A stretch of DNA of 52,301 nucleotides from Patescibacteria group bacterium (GTDB lineage Bacteria > Patescibacteriota > Patescibacteriia > UM-FILTER-42-10), in contig JBAYGW010000006.1 in assembly GCA_041666485.1 (NCBI GenBank), positions 1 to 52,301 on the forward strand, in the 5' to 3' direction. Shown here piece by piece: positions 7,424-48,399 of this stretch (its first letter is position 1; the number at the start of each line of letters is the position of its first letter). The position numbers were made by a program, and so were the translations under genes. The notes under the pieces are model-generated. The model worked only from the letters and a program-made list of their open reading frames with translations, was not told the origin of the DNA and searched no databases.

Positions 7424-7519
<96 letters not shown>

Positions 7520-23438: not shown

Positions 23439-23454
23439 GCCAAAAATATAATTA

Positions 23455-24017: not shown

Positions 24018-24043
24018 TGTCATTTCATGACATAATATGTCAT
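24018..24043. promoter_or_regulatory. Overlapping inverted repeats TGTCAT-N3-ATGACA-N5-TGTCAT (candidate operator)
   Basis: Half-sites at 24018-24023, 24027-24032 and 24038-24043, roughly 30-55 nt upstream of the -35 element of the locus promoter. Confidence 0.45.
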
Positions 24044-24071
24044 TATAAGACATATAAGTACAAATCATCTC

Positions 24072-24100
24072 TTGACTTTTTTACTGCATTATGCTAAAAT
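24072..24100 (+). promoter_or_regulatory. Sigma70-like promoter for the HTH + giant-gene operon
   Basis: TTGACT (24072-24077), a 17-nt spacer, then TAAAAT (24095-24100), 45 nt upstream of ATG 24145. Confidence 0.6.
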
Positions 24101-24144
24101 AGTTACAGTAAATCACAACAAAAACAAAAAAATACCATCAAAAA

Positions 24145-24321
24145 ATGGAGCAATTACTAACCCTCAAGGAAGTAACGGAGATCCTGCGCGTTAGCGAAAG
24201 GACAGTTTATCGTTACATTGATTCGGGTGAGTTAAAAGCGATTAAGATCGGGCAGTGGCGTTTCAGCCAAGAAGATCTTAATCGTTTTATATTCAGTAAA
24301 AAAACGGAAGGCCATGTTTAA
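24145..24321 (+). CDS. Excisionase-family (MerR-like) helix-turn-helix DNA-binding protein, 58 aa; below the ORF-track length cutoff
   Basis: My translation is MEQLLTLKEVTEILRVSERTVYRYIDSGELKAIKIGQWRFSQEDLNRFIFSKKTEGHV. It matches the excisionase-type HTH pattern (LT.kE.A..L.VS..TvYr.i..G.l.a.kiG..wRf...dl..f). Its stop TAA (24319-24321) overlaps ATG 24314 of the giant gene. Confidence 0.75.
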   Translation: MEQLLTLKEVTEILRVSERTVYRYIDSGELKAIKIGQWRFSQEDLNRFIFSKKTEGHV

Positions 24322-27300
24322 CCGAAAGAACAAACTGGAATTGGTACACCAAATAGTGCGTGGCTCCAAAAGAAGGGGTGTCCCCTCTCTATTGGCATTC
24401 GTATTGATCATGCTTTTTGCGTCATTGACAATTCTTATCTTCGCCAATATTGCTATTCAAAATCATCACTCGGAATCAGCGGGTCTTGTCTATAAAACCA
24501 CCGTGGCCGGTGATGTTATTATTCGTACCAGCCCGTCGGATTGTACCGGCTGGTTAAACCCCGATTTAGCAAAGAACATTGACCTGCTTGGCTCTTCATC
24601 AACAAAGGAATTTAATACCAATAATTCAGCATCATACACCAACACTCCTTACGAAAACTTAGGCGATGTTGCGGAGTTTGAATTAGCCAATGCAAAATTG
24701 GTCTGCGGAGGTTTCCAGTTGGCGGAGAATATCCCACCCGAAGCGGTAGATATTGTTGGAACTATCAGTTTGTCTTTTGCCACAGAAACATTTGATAACA
24801 ACGAAGATATTGTTGTTTTTTCCTATTCAATGGACGGCGGTAAGAACTGGAAGGCAGTTGACTCCTTCGCCCTGCTGGAACAAATGAATAATCAAACCAG
24901 GGAAGGATATTGGTCCTATATTATTCCTGATTTGAATGAACTAAAAAAGAGTGAAGATTTTTTGGTAAGAGTCCAATATGTTTCTGAACCGAACAAACAA
25001 CCGGCGACTGCTTACGTAGACGGAATCGCACTTGATATACAATATTTTGAAGAAAAAAGAGACAGTGGAAACTTTGGAGAGATACAAGTTACTAACAAAG
25101 AAGGGATTAACTCCCAAACCACCGCGGTCGCAACGATTGAGGTTGAAAAGAATTCAACTTTCGGATTATTGGGCGTTCCTACTAAAAAAAGGGAGGTTAA
25201 ATCTGTACAGTTAATACACCCGGACGGATCTGTCGCTGAACCGGAAACAAAAATTGAAGAAAAAGAAAATGGCACGACAAAACAAAAAGAATATTCAATC
25301 CAGCCGGTAAATTTTGATAAGCCGGGTGTTTATAAAGCTACTTTCGCAATTGAAGAGAATGGGGTGGTTGAAGAAAAAACTGAGGAATTCGCTTGGGGTG
25401 TCTTATCTTTAAACAGCACGAAATCCGTATATAACCCGGGGGAAACCGCCAATTTAAGTATTAGCGCCTATAATGGTAACGGTGATTTTGTGTGTGATGC
25501 GGATCTTTCCATACAAGTTACAAACCCAAAAGGAAAAGTTGCGACATTATCCACCGCGGAAGGCAGTATTCTTAAATCGCCGCAATGCGGACCAAATATT
25601 GTAACAAATACCGCTGATTACATTACAAGCATTGAAGATTTGTCCGTCGGCCAATATCAATTGAATATCACTGGAGTTATTGATGGAACAACTTATCAGG
25701 CTGCGGAAAGTTTTTCTGTTGAAAAAGACATTCCGTTTGACATTACACGCATCGGTCCAAGTAGAATATACCCGATTGCGGAATATGAAATGTTCTTAGA
25801 GGTCATACCAAAAGATGATTATTTCGGAACAGTCACTGAATTAGTTCCCGACTTAATTCAAGTTTCAGACATCAATGAAAATGGTCTGCTTAGTACTACC
25901 GATGAAAATAATAATTATATTAATTGGCAGGTTGACTGGAAAAAAGGGAAAGCTTATACATTGTCATACAAGTTTGAATCACCGACGCTGGTTGACTACC
26001 ATTTTAAACTGGGACCGGCTTCATTTGTCAACTACAATAACCCGGACAAAAAAGCTGACCCGCTTGCTGAAACAACCAGCTGGCAGGAGACAAGGCCTTG
26101 GCTGATAGAATCAGATAGTATGGCCGACAAAGAACATAACTCCTATATAGACGGGGATACAAACCGAGTTGAAATCATCAATGAAAAACAACTTCGTTAC
26201 CGAGCAGAAAACAGTGAAATTAAAGATCGGTTTTTCCCAAATAATAATTTCTTCCAAGGACCTGACAATAGTTGGCATATTGTAGAAACGCAACTGGATA
26301 TTATCAGCATGGGTGACAGCCGCGTTTCATTCAACGTGAACGGCAAACCACTTATTTTGACACCGGCAGTTGTCATTGGTGGAGTAACCCAACCCATAGA
26401 TACTTTGTCAGCAGATTATCGTGCTCAATTACAAATGCGTCTGGAGGTTCAGAAAATTGATCAGGGAAATAAATGGTCACACATCTTTTTCCGGTTACCC
26501 GAGATTGAAGCGATTGAATTTTTAGTGGAACCGGACGATCACACTATAACTAATGCAAATCCAACATCATTGCTTGTTGACGACCAACTCCTATTGAATT
26601 TTTCTGATCTTGTTGCCTCCGGATTTACCGTTTCGGTTACTCCAAGCAAAATACGAGTTACCAATCTGAAAGACGGCTGGAACACACTGGATCCGACTGA
26701 TACTTTCTACTCTTCAACCGGAGCGGATGGTCAGATAACCTATGGTAACTCAATATATACTGCGACTACAAATGGTACCACATCATTGATTGAAGACAAT
26801 CAATTAATAGTACCATCTTCTGAAACAAGAAGTTTTCTTTCATTTGATACATCATCAATTAGTGATACTGCGACAGTTAGCGCGTCAGATGTCAATACGT
26901 ACGCCGAGTCTTTTGCCAAATCAAAGACTCTAAATACTACTTACTCTATTCAATACTACAGCGGACAGAATGGCATTGGCGCCACACTTGATTCAAGTTC
27001 TGCCGACTGGAACAGCTGTACTACTAGCCATGGTACTTTGAACTGGTCCAACAGTGTCGGTTGGAAATCACAATCACTCACTTCTCCGGCCAGCGCCGTC
27101 AATCTAACCGGCGATACCGATTTTAAACTAGTTGAAGATTTTACTGTTTCAACCGGTGAATATAAGCGGGTAGTTATGCGCCAAACGGAATACGCAGATA
27201 CTACTTCAGACCCGTATTTAGATGTCACCTATACGGCCGGCATTAACGTCTCCGGTAACGCATATAATGAAAACTCCACAGCTGCCCTCACCGAGTGCGA

Positions 27301-30300
27301 CGGTTCTACTAACATGATTAATCTACGGGTGCAAAGCACCACTTATCAAACTTCCTGCAATGATACAACCGGGGCTTTTACTTTCACCGGCGTAGCGACA
27401 CCATCCAGTTCTGAAGCGATGATTATCTGGATTGACGGTCAGACCCCGGACGGTTCAACCGTGAATCAATACTCAGGAACCGGTGACGTTACAGGCATGA
27501 CTGTCCAGGAAAACTCCGTAACCGTCCACAATGACTCCGGCGCATCATATGTCAGTAATTCTGATTTGAATACATTTGATAATGGTGATGATGATGACAT
27601 CAACTATACGGTTTCAACAAGCGACCTGATGATTGAGGACGGGCACCGGCTATTGATCAAGACCAACGAATACCTGGATGCCGGTGGTATAATTACGACC
27701 TCTCCCGCTGCTACACAAAGTGCCATGGATGGTGATATTTATCTGGAATCCGGCGCGGCAATCTCTATTGGTGCCTATGCGCTTTCAATCGGCGGTGACT
27801 ACACAGTAGAAAGTTCCGCGGGAATAATATTTACTACCGGACAAATAACTACTTTTACCGGAACTACTACCGGATTTTCAATTGATACACCGTTAAATTT
27901 TGACAGCTTGGTATTCAACGGTACCGGCGGCGGATGGACATTTGATGGTGATGCTACGATGACTAATGACCTGACCGTAACCGCCGGTACAATCATTTTG
28001 GGGGCGGCAAGTTATGTCGCGGATGATGTCATAATCAATGGCGGAACACTGGATGTAAGCAGTGGAAATAATTATTCGCTTAGCGTCATGGGCTCCTGGG
28101 ATATTGATGGTGGTAATTTTGAAGCTCGGTCAGGCAATGTAACTTTTAATTCGTACTTTGGGTCAGAGACTATTGACTCCGACGGAACCGGTACTGATTC
28201 TTTTTATGATCTCACATTCAATGATGTGAGCGGACATTGGGATCTTGCTGGAATTTTAGACGTAAATAGAAATCTAACAATTACCGGTGGCACAGTTGAT
28301 AATTCATCCGGCAATTATAATATCAATGTTGGAGGCAGTTGGGATAATGACGATGAATACATCTGTGGTACTGGGACTGTAACGTTTGACGCCACTTCCG
28401 GCACTTTATCAATTGACGCAGACGGAACGGGTGCCGATGCTTTTTATGACCTGACATTTAATGACGGTGGCGGGACAGCTACCTGGCAACTGACAGGACT
28501 TTTAGATGTTAATAGAAATCTTTCTATCGCCGGAGGAACTGTTGATAATTCCGCCGGCAATTACAATATCAACATCGGCGGCGGATACGATAATGATGAC
28601 GGTTATACAAGAGGAACAGAAACAATAACTTTTGACGCGACTTCCGGCACAAACCTAATTGATGGAGACGGGACAGGTAACCAGGACCTTTATAATGTCA
28701 CGTTCAATGACGGTGGCGGAACAGCTACATGGCAATTAACCACTAATTTTGACTGGATATACGGAACTACCACCTTGACTGACGGGGTGTTTGATTTGAA
28801 TAATTATTATTGGTACTCCTACGGTAACTTCAACAAGACCGGGGGTTCATTGCAGATGAATCAGGCATCGGACAATTTAGTTTTTCAGGGTACTTTTACT
28901 ATTTCCGGGGCAGAGGGTGCTGATGTCTTTACGTACGGGACTATCCAGGTGCAGGATGATTTCACTATTTCAGGAGATAATACTTTTGTATTCGGCGGAG
29001 CCGGCAGTCCGCGGGTTGTCTTCACCGGTACAAAGGATCCGACAATATCAATATCCGGCGCTAACAATGTTATTGGATCTAGCACTTATAGTGCGTATTT
29101 TGATATTGCATTTACAAATTCAACCAACACACTGACCTTCCTGACGGCCGTGAATGCCGGACATTGCCGACCACAAGAAGGTAAATTTGTAATCAACGGG
29201 CAAAATCTGAGGTGTGATGGAGTCTTTTACGCATATGCCGGCAGCGGTATTGACATGGCGAGCGGGTCCTTGATTATCGGCAGAGAGTCCTATGCAGGAG
29301 GATCATATAGCCCCTTTTGGTATGAGGCTGGCGCTACAGAGAATATATCCGGGGGAACTATCCAGGTTTATGGATCAGAGCAGGCTACTTACGGCACAGC
29401 CTATTTTGCTGATGGATCTAATTTCACTCCCACCGGCGGAACATTTCAATTTATGGGTACTGCTACCGCTTCCATTTATGTAGCGGAAGTTGATGCTGCT
29501 GACTTCAACTTTTGGGATCTTACTATAGGCAATGGCAGTACAAAAACGGTAGAAATCAATACCGGATCAGTATCAGCAATTGACGTTGATGGTGATCTTA
29601 CCATCACTGCCGGTGCAACACTAGATTCCAACGGAGAACCGTTTGAGGTTGCCGGTAATTGGGATAATAACGGAACTTACACGCATGACAGTAATGCGGT
29701 TACCTTTGACGGAAGCGATACAGACAACACGATTGAAGCCGGCAGCTCTGCATTCTATGATGTCATTTTTCAAGGGCTAGACGGTGCCGGTTTGTGGACT
29801 TTCCAGACCAATGATGCAACTGTTACCAGAACGATTGATATAGATACGAGCGATGAAGTAGTGATTGCCACCGCACGAACGATTACTTGGACCGGATCCG
29901 CTTTCACATTGGACGGGACAATCAGCGGAGCAGGAAAACTTACGATTGATTCTTCTACTACCATACCTACAACCGGTACGCTTTCTAGCATTGTGCGTTT
30001 TGATAGTACAGCCGGTAATACTGCGGTAATGCCGACCCGCACCTATGGAGGCAATGTAGAGATTTATAATAACTCCGCGGTTGCAGCTCGGATTGTTACA
30101 CCGGATATCGGGACACATACAGTTTCTGGCAGTTTAATCGTACAGGCAGCTAACACGCAGAATGTAACTTTTGCCGGAGCAACAAATGACCCCACTATGA
30201 ATATCACGGGCGATCTTGACTTTGGTACTTCAGGAGGAGGTGTCCAAACCATAACCACCGGCGCTAACAAATGGACTGTTGCCGGTAACGTAGATTTAAC

Positions 30301-33300
30301 GGCGGGAACTTTTACAACAGAAGCGGGAAATACTCTGGCCATGACCGGCACAACCAAGCAGATTACTTCTGCCAGTAATCCTTTGCTAAATTTTGAAATC
30401 AGTGCCGGTTCGGTCAATAATGTAGATGCAATGGATGTGAATGGTACATTTGCTATCACAGCTGGTACATTTGACCATCAACATGGCGGAGCGGATATTA
30501 ATATTTTTAGTAACTTTACTATAACAAGTGGCGGAAACTGGCTGCCCTCTGATACATATAAAATAATCTTAGACGGTGACCTGACACTTACTGACAGTAA
30601 CGCCACCCCCGAGGAATTATCATTATTACAAATCGGCGCATCTCCCGATACCACTGATCTTGCCAGTGATATTGCTACCAAAGGAGTAATTGTGCCAACC
30701 GGAGATATTTTCAACAGTCATGGCTATGATATGACTCTGGGAGTTTACGGGATATCAGTTACCGGAACACTTGATTTGACGGACGATGTGGAAACAGATG
30801 AAACCTTTATTACCACCGATGGAGATGTAACATTTGCTTCTGGTTCTGCGGTAACAATTGACCAGTCTACCTTTACTTTTGATGCCACATCCGGCACTGA
30901 TAATATTTTTAACGCCGGAATTCAGGATCTTTATAATTTGGTAATCAATGGAACAGTAATAGTGGAAGTGGAGGATGCCATTGATGTTAACGGTAATCTG
31001 ACAATTACCAGCGGCACATTGGATGTTGTGTCAGGCGAGAATAATGTAATCACTGTAGCCGGCGCGTGGGATAACGATGCAACCTTTGAAGCGCGTAGCG
31101 GAACCGTTACATTTGACGCTACTTCTGGAACCTACAGTATTGACGCCGACGGCACCGGCACGGATGCATTTTATGATCTGACTTTCAACGACGGTGGCGG
31201 ATCGGCAGAATGGGATTTGGCAGGCGCACTTGATGTGAACCGTAATATTGCGATCACCGGCGGAACGGTAGATAATTCTTCTGGCAATTATAATATTAAC
31301 ATCGGGGGAGGTTGGGACAATGACGACAGTTATGTACGCGGCACAGAAACAACCACTTTTGACGGAGCTTCCGGTACATACAGTATTGATACCGACAGCC
31401 CATTAGAAGATGATTTCTACAATGTTGTTATTAATGACAGTGCCGGTTCTCTTCATTTAGATCTAACTTCACAACCGGCACAGATTGACGGCAATTTAAC
31501 TATTACAGACGGAATTCTTGATCTGAATAATTATGACATGTATGTGGTGGGTAACGTTTCTAAAACTGGTGGAAATCTTGAGGTGAACCAAGCAAGTGAT
31601 TTGTTAGCAATTACCGGTAATTTTACCGTATCCGGTAATGATGGATCTGCCATTTTCTCTGACGGTACGATTAGTATTGATGGGAATACTACCATATCCA
31701 ATGATGACACTTTTGGTTGTGTAGCCGGTGGTTGGCCGACATTTAGAATGCAGGGTACAACAAACTCCACCATTTCGGTCTCAGGAGCAAATAACGATTT
31801 TGGGACAGGTACAGAATTTTGTGCATTTACATTACAAAAAACAACGAATTACACTCTTCAACAACTCACAAATATCACCGGCACGACCTTTTATTTTGAA
31901 AATGGTATATGGGATGTAAATGGACAGACCGCTAATTTTTCTGACAAAGTACAAATCAATACGGACGGCGTGTTGAAAATGGCTACCGGCACTTTTACAG
32001 TTGGTCGCAACGGATCGGACGGTGACAACCGTGCTCCTCTTTCATTTTTTATCAGCTCATCAGAAGATATCACGGGAGGAACAATTGAAATATACGGTAC
32101 GGCCAATGCAACTTATGGCTCGCTATTTATAATGGATGGTTCAAACTTTACCCCCACCGGCGGAACAGTAAAGTTTTTAGGGACTGATGCCACAAACACC
32201 CTCTACATTACCGAAGTAAACACGGCGGATTTTAACTTTTACAATCTGGAAATTGGTGATGGTACCAATGCTAAAACATTGAACGTCAATACAGCCGCAA
32301 CCATCCCGATAGACATGAACGGCAATCTGACTATTAATGCCAATGGTACTTTTGATACAAATAGTGAGGCGGTTAAGGTGGCGGGTAATTGGACAAACAA
32401 CGGAACATTCACAGCCGATAGCGGTACAGTAACACTGGACGGTGCGGCTACTCAAACCATATCCGGCACATTAACCGGCAGTTCCGCTTTTTATGATTTA
32501 ACAATTACCAATACTTCCGGCAGCTACACCGGATGCGACACTGCTTTCACGCCGGGCGTTGATTTCGCCGCATCGGCAACATCAACAAACAACTATACGA
32601 TTAATACCGGCAATGTAAAAGTTGAATATAACTCTGGATCAACTTATACCTTCAACAATATCAACTGGGCAGGAACACTGGGTAACGAAATAGTATTCAG
32701 AAATTCCAATCTTACCTCAGGTACTTGGTTATTGAACGTATCAGGAATTCAGTCCGCTGTTTCATATGTAAGTGTTGGCCGTTCTGACGCATCAAGCGGT
32801 GATCAGATTATTGCGTCAGATGGCACCAACACAGATTGTAGTAATAATATTGACTGGTTGTTTTCTTCTTTTTCAGTCTCCGGCAGTATTTATAATGAAA
32901 ATACTACAATTGCCCTTACTGAATGTGACAGTTCTACAAACATGGTCAATCTTAGAGTTCAGGGTACCACCTACCAGACTTCCTGCGATGATACCACTGG
33001 TGCTTATTCTTTTTCTGGGATAACCGGACCGACTACAAACGAATCTATGATCATCTGGATTGAAGGCCAGACTCCGGACGGCGCAGCGGTAAATAAATAT
33101 TCCGGTTCTGGAAACGTTACCGGGATAATTGTGGAGGCAAATGCCCTGACAATAAATAACGATTCAGCTGTCGCAGTCTCCAATACCGACCTGGACACCT
33201 ATGATAGTCGTGAAGATAATGACATCAATTACACGGTTGATTCCGGCAGTCTTATTGTTGAAGACGGTCACCGAATAGTAATTAAAACCAATGAGAATTT

Positions 33301-38512: not shown

Positions 38513-38640
38513 AAAAGCTTGAGCGACTGAAGTTAGAGTGACATTTATTTTTCACAGCCACTTCAGTGGCGTAAGAATCTGATTTAGAAATGTGATCTGT
38601 TAAAAACCACCAGACTACCTGTCTTGAGCCGAGTCGAAAG

Positions 38641-38692
38641 AAAGTCGGTAAGAAATTATTTGCCTTCTTCATAGTCATTTTCGTGGCGCAAG
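38641..38692 (+). repeat. REP-like repeat, left copy
   Basis: AAAGTCGGTAAGAAATTATTTGCCTTCTTCATAGTCATTTTCGTGGCGCAAG is about 80% identical to the right copy at 39264-39315. Confidence 0.7.
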
Positions 38693-38713
38693 CATTTAAT
38701 CAATACATAATCC

Positions 38714-39238
38714 ATGTCCAGATTTTTTGTTGATAATTCATATTACTTTATTACAGTTCCAACAAACCAACTATATCCATTTTTTAGTACTCCTAAACAT
38801 AAATTATTTGTACTAGACAGATTGAATAAAGCAAAGGTAGTTTTCAAGTTAAAAAACTTTGACTTTTGTATTATTTCAAATCATTATCACTTTGTTTCAT
38901 ATTTTAGTAACAGTCAAATAATTCCTAAACTTTTGCAATTTATAAACGGAGGAAGTGCACGTAATTTAAACAAATTAACTGGAAATAAAAAATCCATTTG
39001 GGATGAATATTATATGTATTTAATAGAAGATGAAATAATACTGAACAAAATTAGAGGCTACATAGTTGGTAATCCCTTGAAACATAACGAGATTGAAGCA
39101 TTAAAAGATTTAGAAAAATATCCTTTTTCAAGTTATTGCACCTTAATTAGAAAATTAGGCAAAGATAATGTTAATGAGTATATTAGGACAGTCATTTCTT
39201 TAAATGACAATGATATTGTAAATTTGGTAAAGAAATAG
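38714..39238 (+). CDS. Y1 (HUH) tyrosine transposase, IS200-like / REP-associated tyrosine transposase (RAYT)-like
   Basis: The N-terminal YYFITVPT pattern, the HUH motif in ISNHYHFVSYF, and the C-terminal catalytic-Tyr context IRGYIVGNPLKH (Y..NP.k). 174 aa. Confidence 0.75.
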   Translation: MSRFFVDNSYYFITVPTNQLYPFFSTPKHKLFVLDRLNKAKVVFKLKNFDFCIISNHYHFVSYFSNSQIIPKLLQFINGGSARNLNKLTGNKKSIWDEYYMYLIEDEIILNKIRGYIVGNPLKHNEIEALKDLEKYPFSSYCTLIRKLGKDNVNEYIRTVISLNDNDIVNLVKK

Positions 39239-39263
39239 AATTTGCTAAAAAGCATACCCGACT

Positions 39264-39315
39264 AAAGTCGGTAAGAAAATATTTACCTTTTTCACAGCCA
39301 CTTCAGTGGCGTAAG
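39264..39315 (+). repeat. REP-like repeat, right copy
   Basis: TAAAGTCGGTAAGAAAATATTTACCTTTTTCACAGCCACTTCAGTGGCGTAAG, preceded by the small hairpin CCGACtaaaGTCGG. Confidence 0.7.
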
Positions 39316-39382
39316 GTTGTAAATTAATTTATCCTATTGCATGACAAATTTCAATATGCTAAGATATCAAACTAACTTGATA

Positions 39383-39411
39383 TTGACTTTTTGTGCTTGG
39401 TCTGATATAAT
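39383..39411 (+). promoter_or_regulatory. Consensus-like sigma70 promoter for subunit paralogue 1
   Basis: TTGACT (39383-39388), a 17-nt spacer, then TATAAT (39406-39411). A second upstream candidate is TTGCAT-N17-TAAGAT. The whole region is conserved upstream of 46195. Confidence 0.7.
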
Positions 39412-39434
39412 ATAAGCACAAAGGTGCAAAAATA

Positions 39435-40538: not shown

Positions 40539-40559
40539 ATATTAGTAACCGATAAAAAA

Positions 40560-41642
40560 ATGAAGTCAAATATTGTGAAAAAAACTAGTATTTCACTGCT
40601 TATTTTTGCTTTGACTTTTATGTATTTCCCGGCCAGACCGGCTTATGCTGCAAATCTGACCAAAGTTACAGATACACTCTCCACATTAACTCAGAATGTG
40701 GTTGCAAATCACACTATCACCTTTGTCACACCAACAGGTGTGCAGGCGACTACAGACACAATTACGATTGATTTTACAGATTTTACCGTTGGTACGGTTG
40801 AATTCGGCGATATTGATATTGCAGAAGATAACGACGGTAACTGCGATGGCGCATGGACAGATAAAACAGTTGCGGCCACAGCCGGCGTAGGTGCGTGGGG
40901 CGCAGCGTTTACAGGCTCAACATTAACACTTACTCCACCAACCAATGCGGCATCCGGAGAAATTGATGCGGGATTCTGCGTACAAGTAGAAATCGGTTTG
41001 AATGCAGCTGGTGGTAACGCCCAATTGACAAACCCAAATGATACAAATAATCATGTCGTAGAAATCGCTGGAGTTTTCGGTGATGCCGGACAGTTTGCAC
41101 TGGATTTTGTCGCGGATGACAGCGTCAATGTAACTGCCACTGTTGATCCTTCCATTACATTCGCAATTTCAGATACCGCAATCGGTTTTGGCGACCTGAC
41201 ATCCGCTAATGCGCGATATGCAACCGGTGACGCTGCCGGCGCTGATGCAGATTCTGCTGCAGCTCACACAATATCAGTTGGCACCAATGCAACTGACGGA
41301 TATATTGTTACCTATAGCGGTGCTACTTTAACCAGCAGTGGAGATACAATCACAGTAGCCGCGATAACCGATGACGCAAACGGAACTCCGGGCACCGAAC
41401 AGTTTGCCATGGGATTTTCAACCGATGGTAATACCACAATCCCGGCCGGATATGACCACAATGCAACTGCGGGTAGTCGTGATTGGACATTTGTTGCCAG
41501 TACACTTACAACCATTGCTTCAGAAACTATCCCGACCGCAACTGAAACTATCAGTGCATTTTATCTGGCGAATATCGCGGCTGATACCGAAGCGGGAAGT
41601 TATTCAACCGATATTACATATATCGCAACTGCAACCTTTTAG
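40560..41642 (+). CDS. Secreted two-domain surface/fibre subunit candidate, paralogue 2 (360 aa)
   Basis: Signal peptide ...ARPAYA|ANLTK. Collinear with paralogue 1, including perfectly identical 73-nt and 50-nt tracts. Confidence 0.85.
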   Translation: MKSNIVKKTSISLLIFALTFMYFPARPAYAANLTKVTDTLSTLTQNVVANHTITFVTPTGVQATTDTITIDFTDFTVGTVEFGDIDIAEDNDGNCDGAWTDKTVAATAGVGAWGAAFTGSTLTLTPPTNAASGEIDAGFCVQVEIGLNAAGGNAQLTNPNDTNNHVVEIAGVFGDAGQFALDFVADDSVNVTATVDPSITFAISDTAIGFGDLTSANARYATGDAAGADADSAAAHTISVGTNATDGYIVTYSGATLTSSGDTITVAAITDDANGTPGTEQFAMGFSTDGNTTIPAGYDHNATAGSRDWTFVASTLTTIASETIPTATETISAFYLANIAADTEAGSYSTDITYIATATF

Positions 41643-41718
41643 TAATTCCAATAATTTGGTATACTGATATCAATAGTTGAAAGGTTATTAATACCATATT
41701 TATAAAAACAAAAGGGTG

Positions 41719-42711
41719 ATGTCAAAAAACATTACAAAGCTGATATTTGGTGCGCTACTGATTGTAGGGGGCTTTTTTGTTATACCAAAAGCGCAAGCAC
41801 TTACTCTTATCCCCCCCTCATTTGAAACATCAGTTGATCCGGGCGTGACTACGGAAACCACCGTTAAGCTGTACAATGAAACTCAGGAAACACTCAACCT
41901 TTATCCGGAAGTCGTCAGCTTTACGGCTGAAGGAGAAACCGGCAACCCGACATTTGACTTCAATGCCCCAGCTGAAGGAGTCGCTTCATGGTTTACTTTG
42001 CCCGAGGGACCGATTACACTCACCGCCGGCGAAAGAAAAGTAATTGATGTCAAAATTACCCCTCCCGTTGATGCCGAGCCAGGTGGTCACTATGCAACTG
42101 TTTTTTTCGGAACGTCATCACCCAATCTGGAAGACCCGGGCAGTCTAGCGCTATCCACAAAACTCGGTTCTCTGTTTTTACTCAGAGTGTTTGGCGATAT
42201 TAAAGAGTCGGGCAGTATCAGTGAATTTGGCTTAAACGGAAATAATACTCTTTCCAGACTGCCGGCAACTTTCTTTACCCGCTTTCAAAATGATGGCAAC
42301 ATTCATCTAAGACCTACCGGCACTATTAAAATTACCAATATGCTAGGCGGTGATACTGCTGCTTTGGAGTTCAACCCCAAGAAAAGTTGCACCCTCCCCG
42401 ACACCATCAGAAAATATGAAACGATTTGGGAAAAAGATCAGATCAGAGAAGTTACCGGCAATTTTTGGAATAAATTTTGGACAGAGTTTTCCAATGAAAA
42501 AAATAATTTTGCCATCGGCAGGTATAAGGCGACAATTTCATTGGACGCGGGTAATCTAGTTCAAGATACTGCAACTATTACTTTCTGGATTATGCCCTGG
42601 AGAGTAATATCAGTCGCTTTGATTATACTCGCTTTCGTAATTGTCTTACTGATATTTTTGATTAAGAAATACAATCAGTGGATCATCAACAAAGCGCGGA
42701 AAAGGAAATAA
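41719..42711 (+). CDS. Signal peptide + Ig-like/beta-sandwich ectodomain + C-terminal TM anchor protein, paralogue A (DUF916/DUF3324-like architecture)
   Basis: Signal FGALLIVGGFFVIPKAQA. LTLIPPSFETSVDPGVTTETTVKLYNETQETLNLYPEV is the pattern of a chaperone/Ig-like first strand. GGHYATVFFGT is present. The C-terminal TM VISVALIILAFVIVLLIFLI is followed by KKYNQWIINKARKRK. I prefer ATG 41719 over GTG 41716. Confidence 0.75.
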   Translation: MSKNITKLIFGALLIVGGFFVIPKAQALTLIPPSFETSVDPGVTTETTVKLYNETQETLNLYPEVVSFTAEGETGNPTFDFNAPAEGVASWFTLPEGPITLTAGERKVIDVKITPPVDAEPGGHYATVFFGTSSPNLEDPGSLALSTKLGSLFLLRVFGDIKESGSISEFGLNGNNTLSRLPATFFTRFQNDGNIHLRPTGTIKITNMLGGDTAALEFNPKKSCTLPDTIRKYETIWEKDQIREVTGNFWNKFWTEFSNEKNNFAIGRYKATISLDAGNLVQDTATITFWIMPWRVISVALIILAFVIVLLIFLIKKYNQWIINKARKRK

Positions 42712-42719
42712 TAAGAATC

Positions 42720-43601
42720 ATGCGCAATATTAAAAACGCTTCAATCATTATTGGCGTTTTTTTTGTTATGCTTTTTTTATTTATCCCTGAAATTGGCAAA
42801 GCAGACACTGTATCAGGATCACTGAATGTATCTGTTTCAGCGATAGTGCAGGCACCGCCACCACCGGAAGAGCCTGATACGATAGTGCGATTTACTGGTT
42901 TAGCCTATCCGGGATCGGAACTTACCTTTGAACGTAATGGGACTCTTATGGCTACTGTCCCCGCTGATCCGGCCGCAAAATTTGATGTTGCGATTGAAAT
43001 GGATCCAGGAACTTATACTTTTTCTATATATGGCAGTGATGCGGACGGACGTGAGGGGCCGGTTTTTAATATCTCAGTGACGCTATCCTCGGGAGTCACA
43101 ATAACAATAACCGGAATATTTTTAGGACCGACTATTGAAGCGGATACATCGTCAGTTCAGATAGGAGATACAATCACTTTCTTAGGGGTTACAATCCCTG
43201 ACAGTAAGGTGAATCTGTTTGTCAGCCCGGAGACAGTAACCAGTTATGATGTAAATTCCGATAGTAATGGACTATGGTCAAAATCACTGATTGCCGGTGA
43301 AGATCTATTAACCGAAGGAAATCACGAAGTACGTTCTAAATCTACATCCGATCAGGGCGATATTTCAGAATATAGTAAAACTGTTGCATTTACTGTTACC
43401 GAGGAAACTAAACCGGACCCATGTGAACTTGCCTCCCGAGCGGATTTAAACTGCGATGGACGTGTAAGTTTAGTTGATTTTAGTATCTTAATGTTCTATT
43501 GGCAGGAAAATAACCCGGCAAATGCAAGGGCAGATATAAATAAAGACGGTGCGGTAAATATTGTAGATTTTAGCATTATGATGTTTTATTGGACCGGCTA
43601 A
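42720..43601 (+). CDS. Secreted protein with Ig-like domains and a C-terminal dockerin (type I-like duplicated Ca-binding repeat)
   Basis: Signal IIIGVFFVMLFLFIPEIGKA. Dockerin repeats DLNCDGRVSLVDFSILMFYW and DINKDGAVNIVDFSIMMFYW. Start is moved to ATG 42720, because the track's GTG 42678 overlaps the previous gene. Confidence 0.8.
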   Translation: MRNIKNASIIIGVFFVMLFLFIPEIGKADTVSGSLNVSVSAIVQAPPPPEEPDTIVRFTGLAYPGSELTFERNGTLMATVPADPAAKFDVAIEMDPGTYTFSIYGSDADGREGPVFNISVTLSSGVTITITGIFLGPTIEADTSSVQIGDTITFLGVTIPDSKVNLFVSPETVTSYDVNSDSNGLWSKSLIAGEDLLTEGNHEVRSKSTSDQGDISEYSKTVAFTVTEETKPDPCELASRADLNCDGRVSLVDFSILMFYWQENNPANARADINKDGAVNIVDFSIMMFYWTG

Positions 43602-43602
43602 T

Positions 43603-44754
43603 ATGAAACTATCTAACAAACAACTTATTTTCTCCCTGACCGTTGTTATCGGTACAGTTTTATTTGGTAAGGCCGCGAGTGCGGCAAATATCTACGTGAA
43701 CCCGCCGGAGCAGACGGTTTTTGCAGATGAAACATTTTTGGCGGAAGTTTATTTGGACAGCGAAAAAGAAATTATCAACGCCGTTCAAACACAGATTTCT
43801 TATCCAACAAATTATCTGGAAGTCGTGGACCTGGCTTACGGCAATTCTTTTTTAACAATCTGGCCCGAACAGCCAAAAAACAACCCTCAAACAGGAGTAA
43901 TCAGCTTTGCCGGTGGCGTACCAGGAGGAAGTTATGTTTTTGATGCCAAGGTGCTGACAATCACTTTCAAAGCCAAACATACCGGTTCAGCTTTTATAAA
44001 CTTACAGAACGACAAAACCGGCGTTTATCTTAATGACAGCGCAGGAACCCCTGCAAAGATTAATACCACTGGAAGCAAGGTAACAATTCTAACTCCCTCC
44101 TCCCAATCTATCGCACTTTCATCCCCTACTCACCCAGATCAGGATAGTTGGTATTCGGCTGATGATTTCATTGTTACCTGGGAACCAAGAATTGATTCTT
44201 TCTATAGTTACATACTTTCTGCCGACCCCGAAGCTGAACCGGATCAAATTCAGGAGGAGGAAGTGGGTAATGTAACATTTCATGATCTTAAAGACGGCAT
44301 CTACTATTTTATTCTATATGAAAAACCGTCCGGAGAAAATTGGGAATATGCGGGAAAAAGAAGAGTAATGATTGACCAGACGTCCCCTCTGCCATTTGAA
44401 ATCCAACTTGCCGATAATACAAAGGAATATAAAGAAAAAAAAGCAATCATTTTTTCAACTACTGATGCCATGTCGGGGATAGACCACTATGACATTCTCC
44501 AGGGTGAAAAATTATTCACCAATGTATCCAGCCCGTATTTATATCAAATTTATGAACCAACCAATTTCATAGTTCGGGCCTATGACAAAGCAGGCAACCT
44601 GACCGAAGCCGGGAAACTGATTATGGCGGAAAAAGAGAATAATTTCTCAAATTTTGCTATAATACTAATAGTAATAATCATCCTGTTGATTATTATCCTA
44701 TTTATCGTTTTACGGTTCCGATCTAAAGATGAAGATAAGCCTCAGTTGGAATAG
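43603..44754 (+). CDS. Membrane-anchored cohesin-domain protein 1
   Basis: Signal peptide. The cohesin-like domain reads IYVNPPEQTV...AEVYLDSEKEIINAVQTQISYPTNYLEVV...ISFAGGVPGG...LTITFKAKHTGSAFINL. A middle domain (HPDQDSWY...IDQTSPLPFEI...SGIDHYDI...YDKAGN) is shared with the next gene. C-terminal TM FAIILIVIIILLIIILFIVL. Confidence 0.75.
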   Translation: MKLSNKQLIFSLTVVIGTVLFGKAASAANIYVNPPEQTVFADETFLAEVYLDSEKEIINAVQTQISYPTNYLEVVDLAYGNSFLTIWPEQPKNNPQTGVISFAGGVPGGSYVFDAKVLTITFKAKHTGSAFINLQNDKTGVYLNDSAGTPAKINTTGSKVTILTPSSQSIALSSPTHPDQDSWYSADDFIVTWEPRIDSFYSYILSADPEAEPDQIQEEEVGNVTFHDLKDGIYYFILYEKPSGENWEYAGKRRVMIDQTSPLPFEIQLADNTKEYKEKKAIIFSTTDAMSGIDHYDILQGEKLFTNVSSPYLYQIYEPTNFIVRAYDKAGNLTEAGKLIMAEKENNFSNFAIILIVIIILLIIILFIVLRFRSKDEDKPQLE

Positions 44755-46081
44755 CAGGATCATATTAACCTCTTTGCTTGTCATGGGGGGATTTATTGTC
44801 GGAACTAACGTGGCACATGCTGGTGCCACACTTTTTCTTTCTCCATCCGGTGGATCGCTGACGGTTGGCGGATCAATCTCCACAACTGTTGTTGTTAATA
44901 CCGGTGGAGACCCTATTAACGCAGTACAAGCAACAGCTTCGTTTCCTACCGATCTTCTGGAAGCGACTGCAGTAACCCAATCAGGGTTATTTGATTTTTG
45001 GCCGGTCACGCCCATCTATTCCAATGGTTCTGGGACAGTAAATTTTGCGGGCGGACTTAGAGACCCCGGTTATACTGGAACTTCTGGATCAATCGTCACT
45101 ATCACCTTTAAGGGTAAAAAAGCGGGAACTGCCACTATTACTCTAGGTTCCGTAATGATATTAAAGAATGACGGTGATGGAACCGATCTGTTCACCGGTG
45201 CTGGCAGCGCAACCTTTACCATATCAGAACCAACTCCCATTACCCCGATTAAACCAACGCCGGTCCCGGATACGGAAGAACCTGAGGAACCAGAGCCGGA
45301 TATAGAAGCCTTGCCGGCGCCAGTTATTTATTCTGACACTCATCCGAAACAAGACAGTTGGTATACTGACAATTCACCGGCATTTTACTGGGATAAACTA
45401 GAAGGGGCGGAAGGATTCAGTTATTCCTTTGATGATAAAAAGAATACAATCCCGGATGACACGACAGAAGGTACGGATAACAAAGCTAACTTCAAAAAAA
45501 CCAAAGACGGTGTTTGGTATCTGCATGTAAAAGTTCTAAACAAAGGTGGTTGGAGCAAAACGTACCATTACCGGGTTCAGATTGATACTACGCCTCCGTT
45601 AGAATTTGATATTAGAATGGAAGGTGAAAATCCGACCAAGCTGCAGGAACCGAAAATGCATTTTGCAACGGTTGATGAACTTTCAGGTGTTGACCGTTAT
45701 GAACTATCCTTAGATAAAGAACCCTATGCTGTTCTTGAAACCGGCGAAACCGAACCTTTTACATTTTCCAAGCTCCCATATGGTGAACACACGACAGAAG
45801 TACAAGTATACGACAAGGCAGGCAACATACAATCTTCTTCATTAGATTTTAATGTTATCAAGTATTCTACGGAAAGCGGGTTTTGGTTGTGGTCACATTT
45901 TATCCTTTTTTCCTGGCTTGCACTGATACTGCTAATCATAATCCTCGCACTGGTGATCCTACTTTGCTTATTTCTGTTTGTTTGTTGTCGGAGGAAGGAA
46001 GATGATGAGGATGAGGAGCAGAAAAAGCAATCCCGTTGGAAAAAAGCAATATTAAATAAAATTAGAAAAGAGAAAAATTAG
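44729..46081 (+). CDS. Membrane-anchored cohesin-domain protein 2 (with Pro/Glu-rich linker)
   Basis: Signal peptide. Cohesin-like LFLSPSGGSLTVGGSISTTVVVNTGGDPINAVQATASFPTDLL...VNFAGGL...VTITFKGKKAGTATITL. Linker EPTPITPIKPTPVPDTEEPEEPEPD. Shared middle domain (HPKQDSWY, IDTTPPLEFDI, SGVDRYEL, YDKAGN). C-terminal TM plus a charged tail. The start overlaps the previous gene by 26 nt. Confidence 0.75.
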   Translation: MKISLSWNSRIILTSLLVMGGFIVGTNVAHAGATLFLSPSGGSLTVGGSISTTVVVNTGGDPINAVQATASFPTDLLEATAVTQSGLFDFWPVTPIYSNGSGTVNFAGGLRDPGYTGTSGSIVTITFKGKKAGTATITLGSVMILKNDGDGTDLFTGAGSATFTISEPTPITPIKPTPVPDTEEPEEPEPDIEALPAPVIYSDTHPKQDSWYTDNSPAFYWDKLEGAEGFSYSFDDKKNTIPDDTTEGTDNKANFKKTKDGVWYLHVKVLNKGGWSKTYHYRVQIDTTPPLEFDIRMEGENPTKLQEPKMHFATVDELSGVDRYELSLDKEPYAVLETGETEPFTFSKLPYGEHTTEVQVYDKAGNIQSSSLDFNVIKYSTESGFWLWSHFILFSWLALILLIIILALVILLCLFLFVCCRRKEDDEDEEQKKQSRWKKAILNKIRKEKN

Positions 46082-46144
46082 TAAATAAATAGTTAGATTA
46101 CTTTACATTGAAAATAGTATTATGCTAAGATAACATACCTGATA

Positions 46145-46173
46145 TTGACTCTTTTATAATAGTATGATATAAT
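46145..46173 (+). promoter_or_regulatory. Consensus-like sigma70 promoter for subunit paralogue 3
   Basis: TTGACT (46145-46150), a 17-nt spacer, then TATAAT (46168-46173). An upstream TTACAT-N17-TAAGAT is also present. The motif block ATGCTAAGATA...TGATATTGACT...GATATAATATA is shared with 39350-39415. Confidence 0.7.
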
Positions 46174-46194
46174 ATACGTATAATTCAAAAATAT

Positions 46195-47286
46195 ATGACT
46201 AAACACTATTTTAAAGTATTAAATCGCATAGTAAGCATTATAGTAATATTCTTGCTTGTTTTTGTGCTTACTCCGCCTTATCATACTACATACGCGGCTA
46301 GTTTAACCAAAATATCCGATACGCTTTCCACGCTGACCCAGAATGTTGTAGCCGATCACACAATTTTGTTTGTTACGCCAACAGGTGTCCAGGCAGACGC
46401 GGACACTATTACAATTGATTTGACCGATTTCACGGTGGGCACTGTTGATTATACAGACATTGATCTGGCTGTTGATGCTGACGCAAACTGTGATGGCGCC
46501 TGGACGGACAAGACGCTCGCTGCCGCAAACGGAGCCGGCGTATGGGGAGCAACATTCACCGGAGCTGTTCTTACCTTGGATGCTCCGACCGATGCCGCCG
46601 CTGGTGAAATTACCGCGGGAGTTTGTGTACAAGTTCAAATTGGAACAAATGCCTCAGGAGGCAACGCTCAACTGCAAAGTCCCAATGATACCAGTTCACA
46701 CACCATGGAAATCGCCGGAACTTTCGGTGATACCGGTCAATTTGCAATTGACTTTGTTTCCGATGACAGTGTAAATATCACCAGTACTGTTGATCCGTCA
46801 ATTACTTTTGCAATTTCTGATACAACAATCGGTTTTGGCACACTAAGCGCTTCGGCTGCCCGTTGGGCGACTGCCGATACCGCCGGTTCTGCAACAGACA
46901 CGGCCGCGCATACTATTTCAATCGGCACAAATGCAACAGACGGATACATTGTTACTTATAACGGCGCTACTTTGACCAGCAGCGGTGATACAATCACTGT
47001 CGCCTCAATTACAAATGACGCTGACGGGACACAAGGTGCGGAACAATTTGGCATGGGATTCTCAACCAACGGCGATTCTACAATTGCCGCGGCTTATGAT
47101 CATAATGCAACAGCAGGAAATAGGGATTGGGCATTTGTTGCCAGTACTACAACTACGATTGCCTCCGAGCTGGTACCAACTGCATCTGAAACAATCAGCG
47201 CCTTTTATCTTGCCAATATCGCCGCCGATACCGAAGCAGGAAGTTATAACACAGACATCACTTATATTGCTACCGCGACTTTTTAG
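46195..47286 (+). CDS. Secreted two-domain surface/fibre subunit candidate, paralogue 3 (363 aa)
   Basis: Signal ...YHTTYA|ASLTKISDTLSTLTQNVVADHTILFVTPTG. Collinear with paralogues 1 and 2. Ends ...EAGSYNTDITYIATATF. Confidence 0.85.
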   Translation: MTKHYFKVLNRIVSIIVIFLLVFVLTPPYHTTYAASLTKISDTLSTLTQNVVADHTILFVTPTGVQADADTITIDLTDFTVGTVDYTDIDLAVDADANCDGAWTDKTLAAANGAGVWGATFTGAVLTLDAPTDAAAGEITAGVCVQVQIGTNASGGNAQLQSPNDTSSHTMEIAGTFGDTGQFAIDFVSDDSVNITSTVDPSITFAISDTTIGFGTLSASAARWATADTAGSATDTAAHTISIGTNATDGYIVTYNGATLTSSGDTITVASITNDADGTQGAEQFGMGFSTNGDSTIAAAYDHNATAGNRDWAFVASTTTTIASELVPTASETISAFYLANIAADTEAGSYNTDITYIATATF

Positions 47287-47330
47287 TGATAAAATTAAGT
47301 TGTTTCAAAAAATAAATAATCTAAAAAACA

Positions 47331-48344
47331 ATGTCTAAGAAATTTGCAACATCAGCATTGGTTGCCATATTTACATTTTTTGGGGGGTTTTTTATTGCCT
47401 CAACGGCCAATGCATTAACACTAATTGCCCCGACATTTGAGCAAAATGTTGACCCAGGGGTAGCGAGTAAAACAGAAATTAAGCTCTATAACGAAACACA
47501 GGATACACTTTCATTGTATCCGGAAGTTGTTTCATTCACCGCAAATGGTGAGACAGGCCAGCCCACTTTTGATTTTGATGCGCCGCTTGAAGGAGTGGCA
47601 ACTTGGTTTGACTTGCCGGAAGGACCAATTATGTTGCAGGGCGGTGAAAGAAAAATTGTTCCGATCACAATCACTCCTCCGATTGATGCTGAACCGGGTG
47701 GTCACTACGCAACAGTATTTTTTGGTACTTCCGCCCCTAATCTGGAAGATCCGGGCAGCCTGGCACTTGCCACCAAGCTTGGATCATTATTCCTACTGAG
47801 AGTTTTTGGTGATGTTACTGAAGCAGGAAATATCGCGGAATTTGGTCTGGATGGCAACAAAACTACGTTAAACAGATTACCGGCTACAGTATTCACCCGC
47901 TTTCAAAACAGCGGCAATATTCATCTCCGACCGGAAGGAACTATTACGATCAAAAACTTACTGGGTGCTGAAACAGCTAAGCTAGACTTTAATGCAAAAA
48001 AAGGTGCGACCCTGCCGGATAGTATTAGAAAATACGATACAATCTGGGAAAAAGGGCAGGTGAAGCAAGCTTCCGGTAATTTTTGGAACAAATTCTGGAC
48101 AGAGTTTGCCAACGAAAAGAACAATTTTGCTTTAGGCAGATACAAAGCCAGTATCGCATTAACCGCAGGAAATCTGGTCCAGGACAACGCAGAAGTTACA
48201 TTCTGGGTCTGGCCGTGGAGAATTCTGCTTATTTCATTGCTTGTACTCATACTGATTATTCTCCTGCTCGTTATCTTCATCAAACGATACAACAAGTGGA
48301 TTGTGGCAAAGGCAAAAACAACAGCAGAGCCAGAGAAAAAATAA
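47331..48344 (+). CDS. Signal peptide + Ig-like ectodomain + C-terminal TM anchor protein, paralogue B
   Basis: Collinear with 41719..42711, for example GGHYATVFFGTSAPNLEDPGSLALATKLGSLFLLRVFGD. C-terminal TM LLISLLVLILIILLLVIFI followed by KRYNKWIVAKAK. Confidence 0.8.
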   Translation: MSKKFATSALVAIFTFFGGFFIASTANALTLIAPTFEQNVDPGVASKTEIKLYNETQDTLSLYPEVVSFTANGETGQPTFDFDAPLEGVATWFDLPEGPIMLQGGERKIVPITITPPIDAEPGGHYATVFFGTSAPNLEDPGSLALATKLGSLFLLRVFGDVTEAGNIAEFGLDGNKTTLNRLPATVFTRFQNSGNIHLRPEGTITIKNLLGAETAKLDFNAKKGATLPDSIRKYDTIWEKGQVKQASGNFWNKFWTEFANEKNNFALGRYKASIALTAGNLVQDNAEVTFWVWPWRILLISLLVLILIILLLVIFIKRYNKWIVAKAKTTAEPEKK

Positions 48345-48369
48345 ATAATATCTATCCTAGAAAAAGGAA

Positions 48370-48399
48370 ACGCCCTTGATAATAAGGGTGTTTTCTTTT
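48370..48399 (+). terminator. Rho-independent terminator closing the surface locus
   Basis: Stem ACGCCCTT (48370-48377) / AAGGGTGT (48384-48391) with one G-U pair, then TTTTCTTTTC. Confidence 0.7.

Follow-up and report, generated by a model that had tools for sequence, protein, structure and literature searches.

The first 52,301 nucleotides (nt) of contig JBAYGW010000006.1 (assembly GCA_041666485.1, Patescibacteria group bacterium), hereafter the window, contain a block of ~24 kb whose genes all lie on the + strand of the open reading frame (ORF) map. A preliminary description, made from the letters of the DNA, had read this block as a self-contained surface-filament or adhesin assembly locus in a genome of the candidate phyla radiation (CPR, Patescibacteria), and our analysis supports that reading. 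The block probably encodes a Pam-type pilus, a sortase-free and usher-free CPR surface filament formed by donor-strand exchange. The suggestion that the system might be undescribed was not borne out: the C-terminal domain (CTD) of its small proteins is that of the Pam pilin family NF058581, and this kind of system is already known, the Pam pilus having been described in a 2026 preprint and modelled in NCBIfam. The locus is a variant in three respects, namely a giant acceptor-only protein at the predicted tip, a cohesin-dockerin trio replacing the anchor protein PamR, and its setting in Parcubacteria-type lineages. The genes of the block and the elements that accompany them are:

24314–38512, + strand: giant protein T, 4732 amino acids (aa), ORF
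38000–38509, + strand: CTD (acceptor domain) of the giant protein, aa 4563–4732, from NF058581 and the pilin alignment
39383–39411, + strand: promoter-like TTGACT-17-TATAAT of module 1, 11/12 with TG, conserved in the related loci L001 and L002
39435–40538, + strand: S1 pilin, NF058581 70.1 bits
40011–40043, + strand: S1 linker and predicted donor strand DDSVNVTATVD, aa 193–203, from the conserved motif and the Pam paper
40560–41642, + strand: S2 pilin, NF058581 65.3 bits, 80% identity to S1
41716–42711, + strand: A1, predicted membrane-anchored chaperone, from an AlphaFold2 (AF2) model, Foldseek and synteny
42720–43601, + strand: D, dockerin protein (Dockerin_1), start ATG 42720 chosen from the alignment of homologues (ORF 42678–43601)
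42822–42851, + strand: LNVSVSAIVQ, a donor-strand-like motif at the N-terminus of mature D, from the family motif and a position-specific scoring matrix (PSSM)
43603–44754, + strand: H1, cohesin protein (Pfam Cohesin)
44729–46081, + strand: H2, cohesin protein (Pfam Cohesin and Big_13)
46145–46173, + strand: promoter-like TTGACT-17-TATAAT of module 2, 11/12 with TG, identical in sequence to the module 1 site
46195–47286, + strand: S3 pilin, NF058581 72.3 bits, 73–75% identity to S1/S2
47331–48344, + strand: A2, predicted membrane-anchored chaperone, 68% identity to A1

Each pilin module is thus preceded by its own 11/12 promoter match. The ORF map, BLASTP comparisons and promoter and repeat scans placed genes, paralogies, promoters, palindromes and terminator where the preliminary description had put them. 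Its parts list was correct as far as it went and omitted a transposase gene (38714–39238) that separates the giant gene from the first pilin gene.

Pilin subunits, giant protein and predicted chaperones

Pam pili of the saccharibacterium Ca. Mycosynbacter amalyticus were visualized by cryo-electron microscopy (cryo-EM) as filaments of the pilins PamA and PamB (Troman et al., bioRxiv 10.64898/2026.03.03.709456, 2026; PDB entries 25PZ/25QA). A Pam pilin comprises an N-terminal domain (NTD), a linker and a CTD; the linker fills the groove of the neighbouring subunit by donor-strand exchange, and assembly proceeds without an usher. The components reported are the pilins PamA, PamB and PamE, the PapD/FimC-like chaperones PamC and PamD, each with a C-terminal transmembrane (TM) helix, the proposed tip PamT, which is an acceptor domain alone, and PamR, the proposed terminator and anchor, which joins a strand at its N-terminus to two FnIII domains and a TM helix (bioRxiv 10.64898/2026.03.03.709456). 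NCBIfam represents the system by the models NF058581 and NF058579.

S1, S2 and S3 are 73–80% identical to one another (BLASTP), and all three score above the curated cutoff of 55 bits for NF058581 (CPR_Pam_pilin_C, Pam pilus system pilin subunit; NCBIfam release 20), a model matched by all 75 pilin-family members tested. Against Pfam they gave no match at E ≤ 1, WxL, SCPU and TasA/camelysin included. S1 is laid out as a signal peptide, an N-terminal β-sandwich, a linker strand and, at the C-terminus, an acceptor domain. In its AF2 model, built with 75 homologues (predicted local distance difference test score, pLDDT, 92.6), the NTD strands span aa 38–189 and the CTD aa 206–365, with aa 190–205 forming an unpaired, non-strand linker between the two β domains. 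The pTM (predicted template modelling score) of 0.60 fits a flexible hinge joining two confident domains. The assignment of S1–S3 as secreted Pam-family pilins is strongly supported by these profile matches.

We aligned the 22 residues upstream of the CTD across the family. Directly ahead of the CTD, whose first strand reads DP[ST]I[TS]F.ISD..IGF, 93 pilins of 79 loci carry the motif DD[QS]VxV[TS]ATV (in summary form DDxVxVTATV), at the place where the S1 model has its unpaired linker. By analogy with the Pam structures, this motif is predicted to be the donated strand. The large CTD-only proteins encoded 5′ of pilin genes, among them the giant protein, lack it. A second CTD-only class of ~365–385 aa, whose loci contain A genes in runs, has a distinct pre-CTD motif of its own and, judged by sequence, looks like a second pilin type.

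The giant protein T is rich in T (14%), G (11%), S (9%) and N (8.5%) and contains long T/G/N/D-rich repeats, with 200-aa blocks that are 40–71% identical among themselves. Its sole strongly hydrophobic segment, aa 25–44, is an N-terminal signal or anchor. At the other end, aa 4563–4732 align with the C-terminal ~173 aa of S1/S3 at 56–58% identity (BLASTP, E ~1e-55), the last 200 aa score 60.9 bits against NF058581 (cutoff 55), and the CTD profile finds a single match, at aa 4573–4732, with 192 bits from profile position 11. The small paralogues and the giant therefore have a C-terminal assembly domain in common, as had been proposed. Searched whole and as five pieces against Pfam and NCBIfam, T gave nothing but this domain and a sub-threshold MG2 match. 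The sequence ahead of the CTD, …NTTNWEF followed by DSITLSISDTTIGF, has NTTNWEF in place of the pilin DDSVNVTATV, so T lacks a donor or linker strand. Since a protein with a CTD and without a linker strand can only accept a strand, T would be the first, distal subunit. Sequence and analogy thus point to T as a tip adhesin, a role in which its N-terminal hydrophobic segment would have to be cleaved.

A1 and A2 are 68% identical (BLASTP). A1 has a signal peptide, two Ig-like domains, a C-terminal TM helix and a basic tail; its AF2 model (79 homologues; pLDDT 93.1, pTM 0.81) places the C-terminal helix at aa 295–330. In a Foldseek search of the PDB, the top matches of this model were Enterococcus faecium WxLIP, bound to a long WxL protein (9i25_C) or free (9i1y), at E ~1e-11, followed by CfaA, CsuC, Caf1M, DraB, SafB and YadV (TMt ~0.5–0.56) and, more weakly, RbmA. 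At the level of sequence, the best PDB match of the A-family profile was EfmWxLIP1 (E 0.044), and the commonest Pfam match of the family was WxLIP_PGBD (DUF916), found in 42/79 members at E ≤ 0.05 (best 7.5e-7). A1 itself reaches 15.6 bits against PF06030 (cutoff 27.3), A2 has no match to it, and no A protein matched DUF3324 (PF11797) in Pfam. By sequence, A is a remote WxLIP relative outside Pfam's membership threshold. The assignment of A1 and A2 as two-domain PapD/WxLIP-like chaperones held in the membrane by the C-terminal helix is strongly supported. When S1, A1 and the pilin profile were searched against a set of PDB chains without 25PZ/25QA, the sole match was the weak one to WxLIP1 from the A profile.

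These results uphold the proposal that the Ig-like anchored proteins are assembly partners. They also show that the analogies drawn earlier, to WxL/DUF916 loci and to chaperone-assisted pili, were right at the fold level, because the closest solved folds of A1 are WxLIP and the chaperones of chaperone-usher systems. Of the structure searches that had been suggested, the one on the Ig-like ectodomain was thus informative, and the pilin model gave weak matches only. The suggested Pfam families divided likewise: Dockerin_1 was found, cohesin was marginal, DUF916 stayed below threshold in A1, and DUF3324 and, for S1–S3, WxL, SCPU and TasA/camelysin were not matched.

Gene order in related loci and the dockerin-cohesin set

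We classified the ORFs of 79 Patescibacteria loci from species-representative genomes. An A gene lies directly 3′ of the pilin gene or genes in all 74 loci (74/74) whose sequence extends far enough, a D-type gene follows A in 53/69, and an H-type gene follows D in 48/52. Directly 5′ of the first pilin gene, 43 of 61 loci encode a CTD-only protein (313 to ~3,300 aa) without the pilin N-domain. With P for pilin, T-P-A-D-H-H is the commonest gene string (18 loci), followed by T-P-P-A-D-H-H (6) and T-P-A-D-H-H-H (5). This order persists across the 79 loci at 40–55% protein identity. Independent gene calls in the closed 1.08-Mb genome CP060223.1 give T(>3335 aa)-P-P-P-A-D-H-H, a locus with faint precomputed Pfam matches to Dockerin_1 and Cohesin. 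The co-occurrence of the families in Patescibacteria genomes, proposed as a check in the preliminary description, is thus observed, and in a fixed order.

Clustered at 50% identity, the matches of an exhaustive search with the pilin profile number 2,622 (1,615 of them at E ≤ 1e-10). Many are long proteins that match just from profile position ~198 to the C-terminus. Wherever the source names the organism, the pilin and A families come from Patescibacteria; the groups named are Nomura-, Kerfeld-, Uhr-, Falkow- and Doudnabacteria, Paceibacterota and Microgenomatus. Labels such as Gammaproteobacteria and Methylomirabilis on a few metagenome-assembled genomes (MAGs), and 'uncultured Candidatus Saccharibacteria' or Gammaproteobacteria on third-party annotation binchicken MAGs, were not trusted for taxonomy.

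A second locus type was seen alongside this one (L005, L016, L019, L025, L028, L033, L037, L042, L055, L063, L071, L073 and L074). It consists of P, A and a ~370-aa CTD protein, followed by two more A genes (~310 and ~335 aa; for example L005:9986-15450). The ~370-aa protein has a different N-domain and a linker-like motif, …ATASTV.P.L[ST]I.F.GV. Downstream, D and H are frequently lacking; three of the loci (L019, L033 and L037) have, upstream instead, a cohesin gene and a gene for a longer dockerin-family protein (382–497 aa) whose N-terminus resembles the pilin N-domain. This locus type may correspond to PamA/PamB-type two-pilin systems.

D is secreted; along its chain come an N-terminal donor-like strand, a spacer rich in Pro, a pair of Ig-like domains and a type I dockerin, which matches Dockerin_1 at E 6e-10, above the cutoff. 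Among 56 members of the D family, 43 match Dockerin_1 and 43 match Big_6; D proteins contain no acceptor domain and no enzyme or lectin domain, just the two Ig domains. Directly after the signal peptide, the family has a strand of the form x[VI][ST][VI][ST]A.V, here LNVSVSAIVQ, which a variable Pro/Gly spacer sets apart from the first Ig domain. Scored against a PSSM of the pilin linkers, D strands have a median of 6.6, compared with −11.5 for a background of N-termini from other ORFs, whose 99th percentile is surpassed by 34 of 62 D proteins.

H1 and H2 are 27% identical (BLASTP, E 1e-40). H1 combines a signal peptide, a cohesin domain, an FnIII/Ig-like domain and a C-terminal TM anchor, and scores 23.2 bits against Pfam Cohesin (E 8.7e-5, cutoff 24.1). 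H2, also TM-anchored, scores 24.2 bits against Cohesin (cutoff 24.1) and 38.5 bits against Big_13. Cohesin is matched by 22/76 relatives in the H family, and in the PDB the H-family profile finds 5aoz/5m2o, which are scaffoldin cohesins, as well as chitinase A1 through its FnIII domain. Because gene order is conserved and family-level scans back the identities of the modules, the dockerin and cohesin genes are, on this sequence evidence, an integral and conserved part of the cassette. The preliminary description had noted their presence correctly and underrated their importance.

Regulatory elements, insertion and neighbouring genes

The remaining features of the block are:

24018–24054, unstranded: tandem palindromes TGTCATTTCATGACATA / TGTCATTATAAGACATA, two near-identical copies of TGTCAT-N5-ATGACA type (repeat search)
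24072–24100, + strand: promoter-like TTGACT-17-TAAAAT, 10/12, extended TG, 5′ of the helix-turn-helix (HTH) gene
24145–24321, + strand: HTH_17 / excisionase-family DNA-binding protein, 58 aa (Pfam HTH_17, 66 bits)
38516–39330, + strand: inserted element with transposase gene 38714–39238 (Y1_Tnp and NF047646 matches), not part of the pilus system
48363–48399 (approx.), + strand: terminator-like hairpin GGAAACGCCCTT...AAGGGTGTTTTC with a T-run, read from the sequence, which ends the block

The palindromes lie directly 5′ of the −35 element and are operator-like, suggesting a regulatory function. The stop codon of the HTH gene overlaps the start of the giant ORF, an arrangement of translational coupling. 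The HTH protein matches the excisionase-family domain TIGR01764 (43.4 bits, cutoff 28.8); its score against NF047737, the HTH protein MAD1 of methylation-associated defence (MADS) systems, is 46.8 bits, below the cutoff of 80. We rejected the HTH regulator, previously taken to bound the block, as a part of the system: a homologue occurs in 1/79 loci, where it does not lie 5′ of the tip gene. The regulator may have been recently recruited or derived from a mobile element. At the other end of the block, the automatic terminator scan listed the 48363–48399 hairpin on the − strand only and left it unscored on the + strand.

The insertion of ~810 bp at 38516–39330 sits between the giant gene and the S1 promoter and is a RAYT/REP system in a CPR genome. 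Its gene (38714–39238) encodes a REP-associated tyrosine transposase (RAYT/IS200-like; REP, repetitive extragenic palindromic). The gene is flanked by exact copies of a 21-mer, CAGCCACTTCAGTGGCGTAAG, at 38555 and 39295, with a REP-like unit that forms a hairpin at 38613. L001, a locus 94% identical to that of the window, lacks the insertion; L002 has it, together with several further REP copies.

Upstream of the block, between the terminator of an ABC-2 permease gene (23454–23473) and the pilus locus, positions 23500–23870 are GC-rich (54% vs 42% for the window) and contain no convincing ORF. A structured RNA was rejected for this stretch: it matched nothing in Rfam and showed no folding signal (z = 0.07 and −1.21). 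Nor did Pfam return a match, and the stretch may be a decayed or foreign gene remnant. Downstream, the adjacent genes 50692–51393 and 51415–51831 encode Cys-rich signal-peptide proteins that match Pfam T4SS_pilin PF18895 with 28.0 and 37.0 bits (cutoff 26.6). Both are pilins of type IV secretion (conjugation-type); their genes lie 2.3 kb downstream of the Pam-type locus and have no relation to it. A 5S rRNA gene at the start of the window (15–123) and a tRNA-Ser(CGA) gene (7424–7513) belong to its housekeeping context.

Assembly model and alternative readings

The locus resembles the Pam system in its pilin CTD family, in its two-domain pilins with an inter-domain linker strand (in the window an AF2 prediction), in PapD-like chaperones with a C-terminal TM helix encoded in the operon, in having one acceptor-only subunit, and in having several pilin paralogues and two chaperones per locus. 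Both are restricted to CPR and have no usher, sortase or ATPase. They differ in that the acceptor-only subunit is a 4732-aa repeat protein here, whereas PamT is small and single-domain. A PamR-type protein, combining strand, FnIII pair and TM helix in a single chain, is lacking from the block, which has instead a conserved strand/two-Ig/dockerin protein and two cohesin-TM proteins. The related loci bear names of Parcubacteria-type lineages (Kerfeld-, Uhr-, Falkow-, Doudna- and Nomurabacteria and Paceibacterota), whereas the paper emphasises Saccharimonadia and Microgenomatia, and the window locus has no adjoining ATP-synthase genes.

On the published Pam model, export would be by Sec, and the A chaperones would cap the CTD groove of each pilin. 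The linker strand of an incoming pilin would displace the chaperone strand, and the fibre would therefore grow from its base without an usher. T would lead as a distal, acceptor-only tip adhesin, analogous to FimH, PapG and PamT, and the pilins, both donors and acceptors, would follow. D has a donor strand and no CTD and could thus only donate; by giving its N-terminal strand to the last pilin, it would terminate the fibre. Acceptor-only T, donor-and-acceptor P and donor-only D would then constitute the grammar of a polar donor-strand polymer, in which D ends the fibre and docks onto H. The dockerin of D would plug into the membrane cohesins H1/H2 and so tether the pilus base, a step that we infer from sequence and by analogy. 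D and H together would be a two-part equivalent of PamR, the dockerin replacing its TM helix and H adding a cohesin and a TM helix. The S3-A2 module, with its own promoter, may supply a compositionally distinct stretch of fibre, as PamA and PamB do. The likely role of the filament would be to reach and attach to a host cell.

Chaperone-usher pili (Pap/Fim, CFA/I, Csu, Caf1) share the logic of donor-strand complementation and exchange, the two-domain PapD-like chaperone fold seen in the Foldseek matches to CfaA, CsuC and Caf1M, tips of the FimH/PapG type in which a binding region is joined to a C-terminal pilin domain without donor strand, and an ordered polar assembly closed by a terminator subunit. 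The window system, in contrast, has neither usher nor outer membrane, its chaperones are membrane-anchored rather than soluble, its pilins have two domains, and the donor is an inter-domain linker (D excepted) rather than an N-terminal extension. No protein of the block matched Usher (PF00577) or PapD_N/PapD_C (PF00345/PF02753) in Pfam; the likeness lies at the fold level. Cellulosomes anchored by cohesin and dockerin, for example through the anchoring scaffoldins of Clostridia and Ruminococcus, likewise have a type I dockerin, with two Ca-binding repeats, on a secreted protein, and cohesin modules on cell-bound proteins encoded adjacent to it. Unlike them, the window locus has no glycoside hydrolases or carbohydrate-binding modules (Pfam), its H proteins are held by a C-terminal TM helix and not by SLH domains or sortase, and its sole dockerin protein carries just Ig domains and a pilin-like strand.

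Several observations weigh against a Pam-type pilus as set out above. The window proteins were likened to PamA/B/C/D/R solely through the NF058581 and NF058579 models and the published descriptions, and the contacts between chaperone and pilin, pilin and pilin, D and pilin, and D and H are all ones that we infer. Scores against the PamT equivalog NF058579 are ~31–36 bits (31.5 for the giant), far below its cutoff of 240, and A1 and A2 match no NCBIfam model at E ≤ 1. If aa 25–44 of the giant were an uncleaved anchor, it would bar T from the distal tip. Foldseek matches of the S1 model in the PDB are weak and of low TM-score (0.15–0.25), to two-Ig MSCRAMM adhesins and integrins, and are informative only as to the presence of two Ig-like domains. 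The D motif of the window scores 4.8, just below the background 99th percentile of 5.95, and alternating V-x-V-x-A-x-V is a generic β-strand pattern. D strands do not covary with the pilin linkers of their own loci (permutation p = 0.72); this null result counts neither for nor against the anchor idea, as the motif varies little. Cohesin matches are marginal for individual H proteins.

The fold of A1 invites a different reading, in which the locus specifies a WxL/Csc-like, non-filamentous complex: small and giant proteins would be displayed singly, each CTD held by A, and no polymer would form. E. faecium WxLIP, including the form bound to a long WxL protein, is the top solved-structure match of A1, EfmWxLIP1 leads the PDB sequence matches of the A profile, and DUF916 is the commonest Pfam match of the family. 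The parts list, too, parallels the WxL/Csc loci of Lactobacillales, which encode a small WxL protein, a large WxL protein and a WxLIP made of DUF916, DUF3324 and a TM helix (Hassan et al. 2023, PMC10599100). In both cases, small proteins and a large protein end in a common domain, the partner has a signal peptide, two Ig domains and a C-terminal TM helix, and the partner has been proposed to insert a strand or hairpin into the common domain. Yet that domain contains neither a WxL domain nor a W-x-L motif here: the giant has no Pfam match, PF13731 included, at E ≤ 0.01, and the last 200 aa contain no W-x-L motif. No protein of the block has an LPXTG C-terminal signal, so a CscD-type protein is missing, and Pfam and motif scans confirm the earlier remark that W-x-L motif, LPXTG signal and usher are all lacking from the block. 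Judged by the WxL family's own criteria, the locus falls outside the WxL type. Descriptions of WxL proteins have them bind peptidoglycan as single units rather than polymerise, whereas the CPR pilins have an additional N-terminal domain and a donor linker; their domain matches the Pam pilin model, and Pam family proteins have been seen as filaments by cryo-EM. A linker that is present in pilins, absent in tips and alone in D suits a polar polymer, and one-to-one display needs none. We therefore regard single display as improbable. Nor could biased composition account for the locus, as it would if unrelated T/S/G-rich, β-rich, low-complexity surface adhesins with no common assembly pathway had been grouped by chance resemblance. 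The composition of the giant is indeed skewed, and BLASTP gives weak spurious internal matches between it and the pilins; the CTD match, however, is specific, a single domain of 192 bits located exactly at the C-terminus and above a curated cutoff, and gene order is conserved in 79 loci at 40–55% identity. This explanation is effectively refuted.

A third alternative concerns D and H only and is compatible with a Pam-type core. Here the two would form a separate, co-regulated surface scaffold, glycan- or host-binding and resembling a mini-cellulosome, and the fibre base would be held by a TM-anchored chaperone or a PamR-like protein; the TM helix of A could itself retain the last subunit. Cohesin-dockerin pairs normally build surface complexes unrelated to pili, and SEML1_0315 of Southlakia epibionticum, a dockerin-domain envelope protein that was essential in a transposon-sequencing (Tn-seq) screen of this cultivated saccharibacterium, has been interpreted as targeting host glycans (PMC10633639). 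The lack of covariation between D strand and linker and the generic, in the window sub-threshold, D motif would also fit. By contrast, D-H-H directly follows the chaperone gene in most loci (53/69; 48/52), D has no enzyme or lectin domain that would suit a scaffold, its conserved strand, carried by a Pro/Gly spacer, lies outside the Ig fold in the manner of a pilin's N-terminal extension, and its layout mirrors PamR with a dockerin for the TM helix. On balance, we consider a separate scaffold rather unlikely. The words 'cohesin' and 'dockerin' are both absent from the main text of the Pam paper (bioRxiv 10.64898/2026.03.03.709456), and neither that text nor a full-text literature search yielded a report of a cohesin-dockerin pair as a pilus anchor. 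Tentatively, and with some doubt that all its parts hold jointly, we put forward a wider view of the Pam-type pilus, in which a split D/H cohesin-dockerin anchor and a fully polar, machinery-free series of subunits go together with WxLIP, Pam and chaperone-usher chaperones as one evolutionary family of strand-complementation systems.

CPR bacteria are considered to rely on attaching to host cells, yet little is known of the organelles that they use for it. Descriptions of the Pam pilus come to date from a single cultivated saccharibacterium; here, a fixed six-gene cassette grammar appears in Parcubacteria-type MAGs. If the D/H proposal is true, a pilus base would be tied to the cell by a cohesin-dockerin pair, which is previously unreported. 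The kinship of the chaperones with enterococcal and lactobacillal WxLIP also hints at a possible mode of action for WxL surface complexes. The large, hypervariable proteins encoded 5′ of the pilin genes (313 to >4,700 aa) are predicted to be tip adhesins and would therefore be prime candidates for determinants of host specificity.

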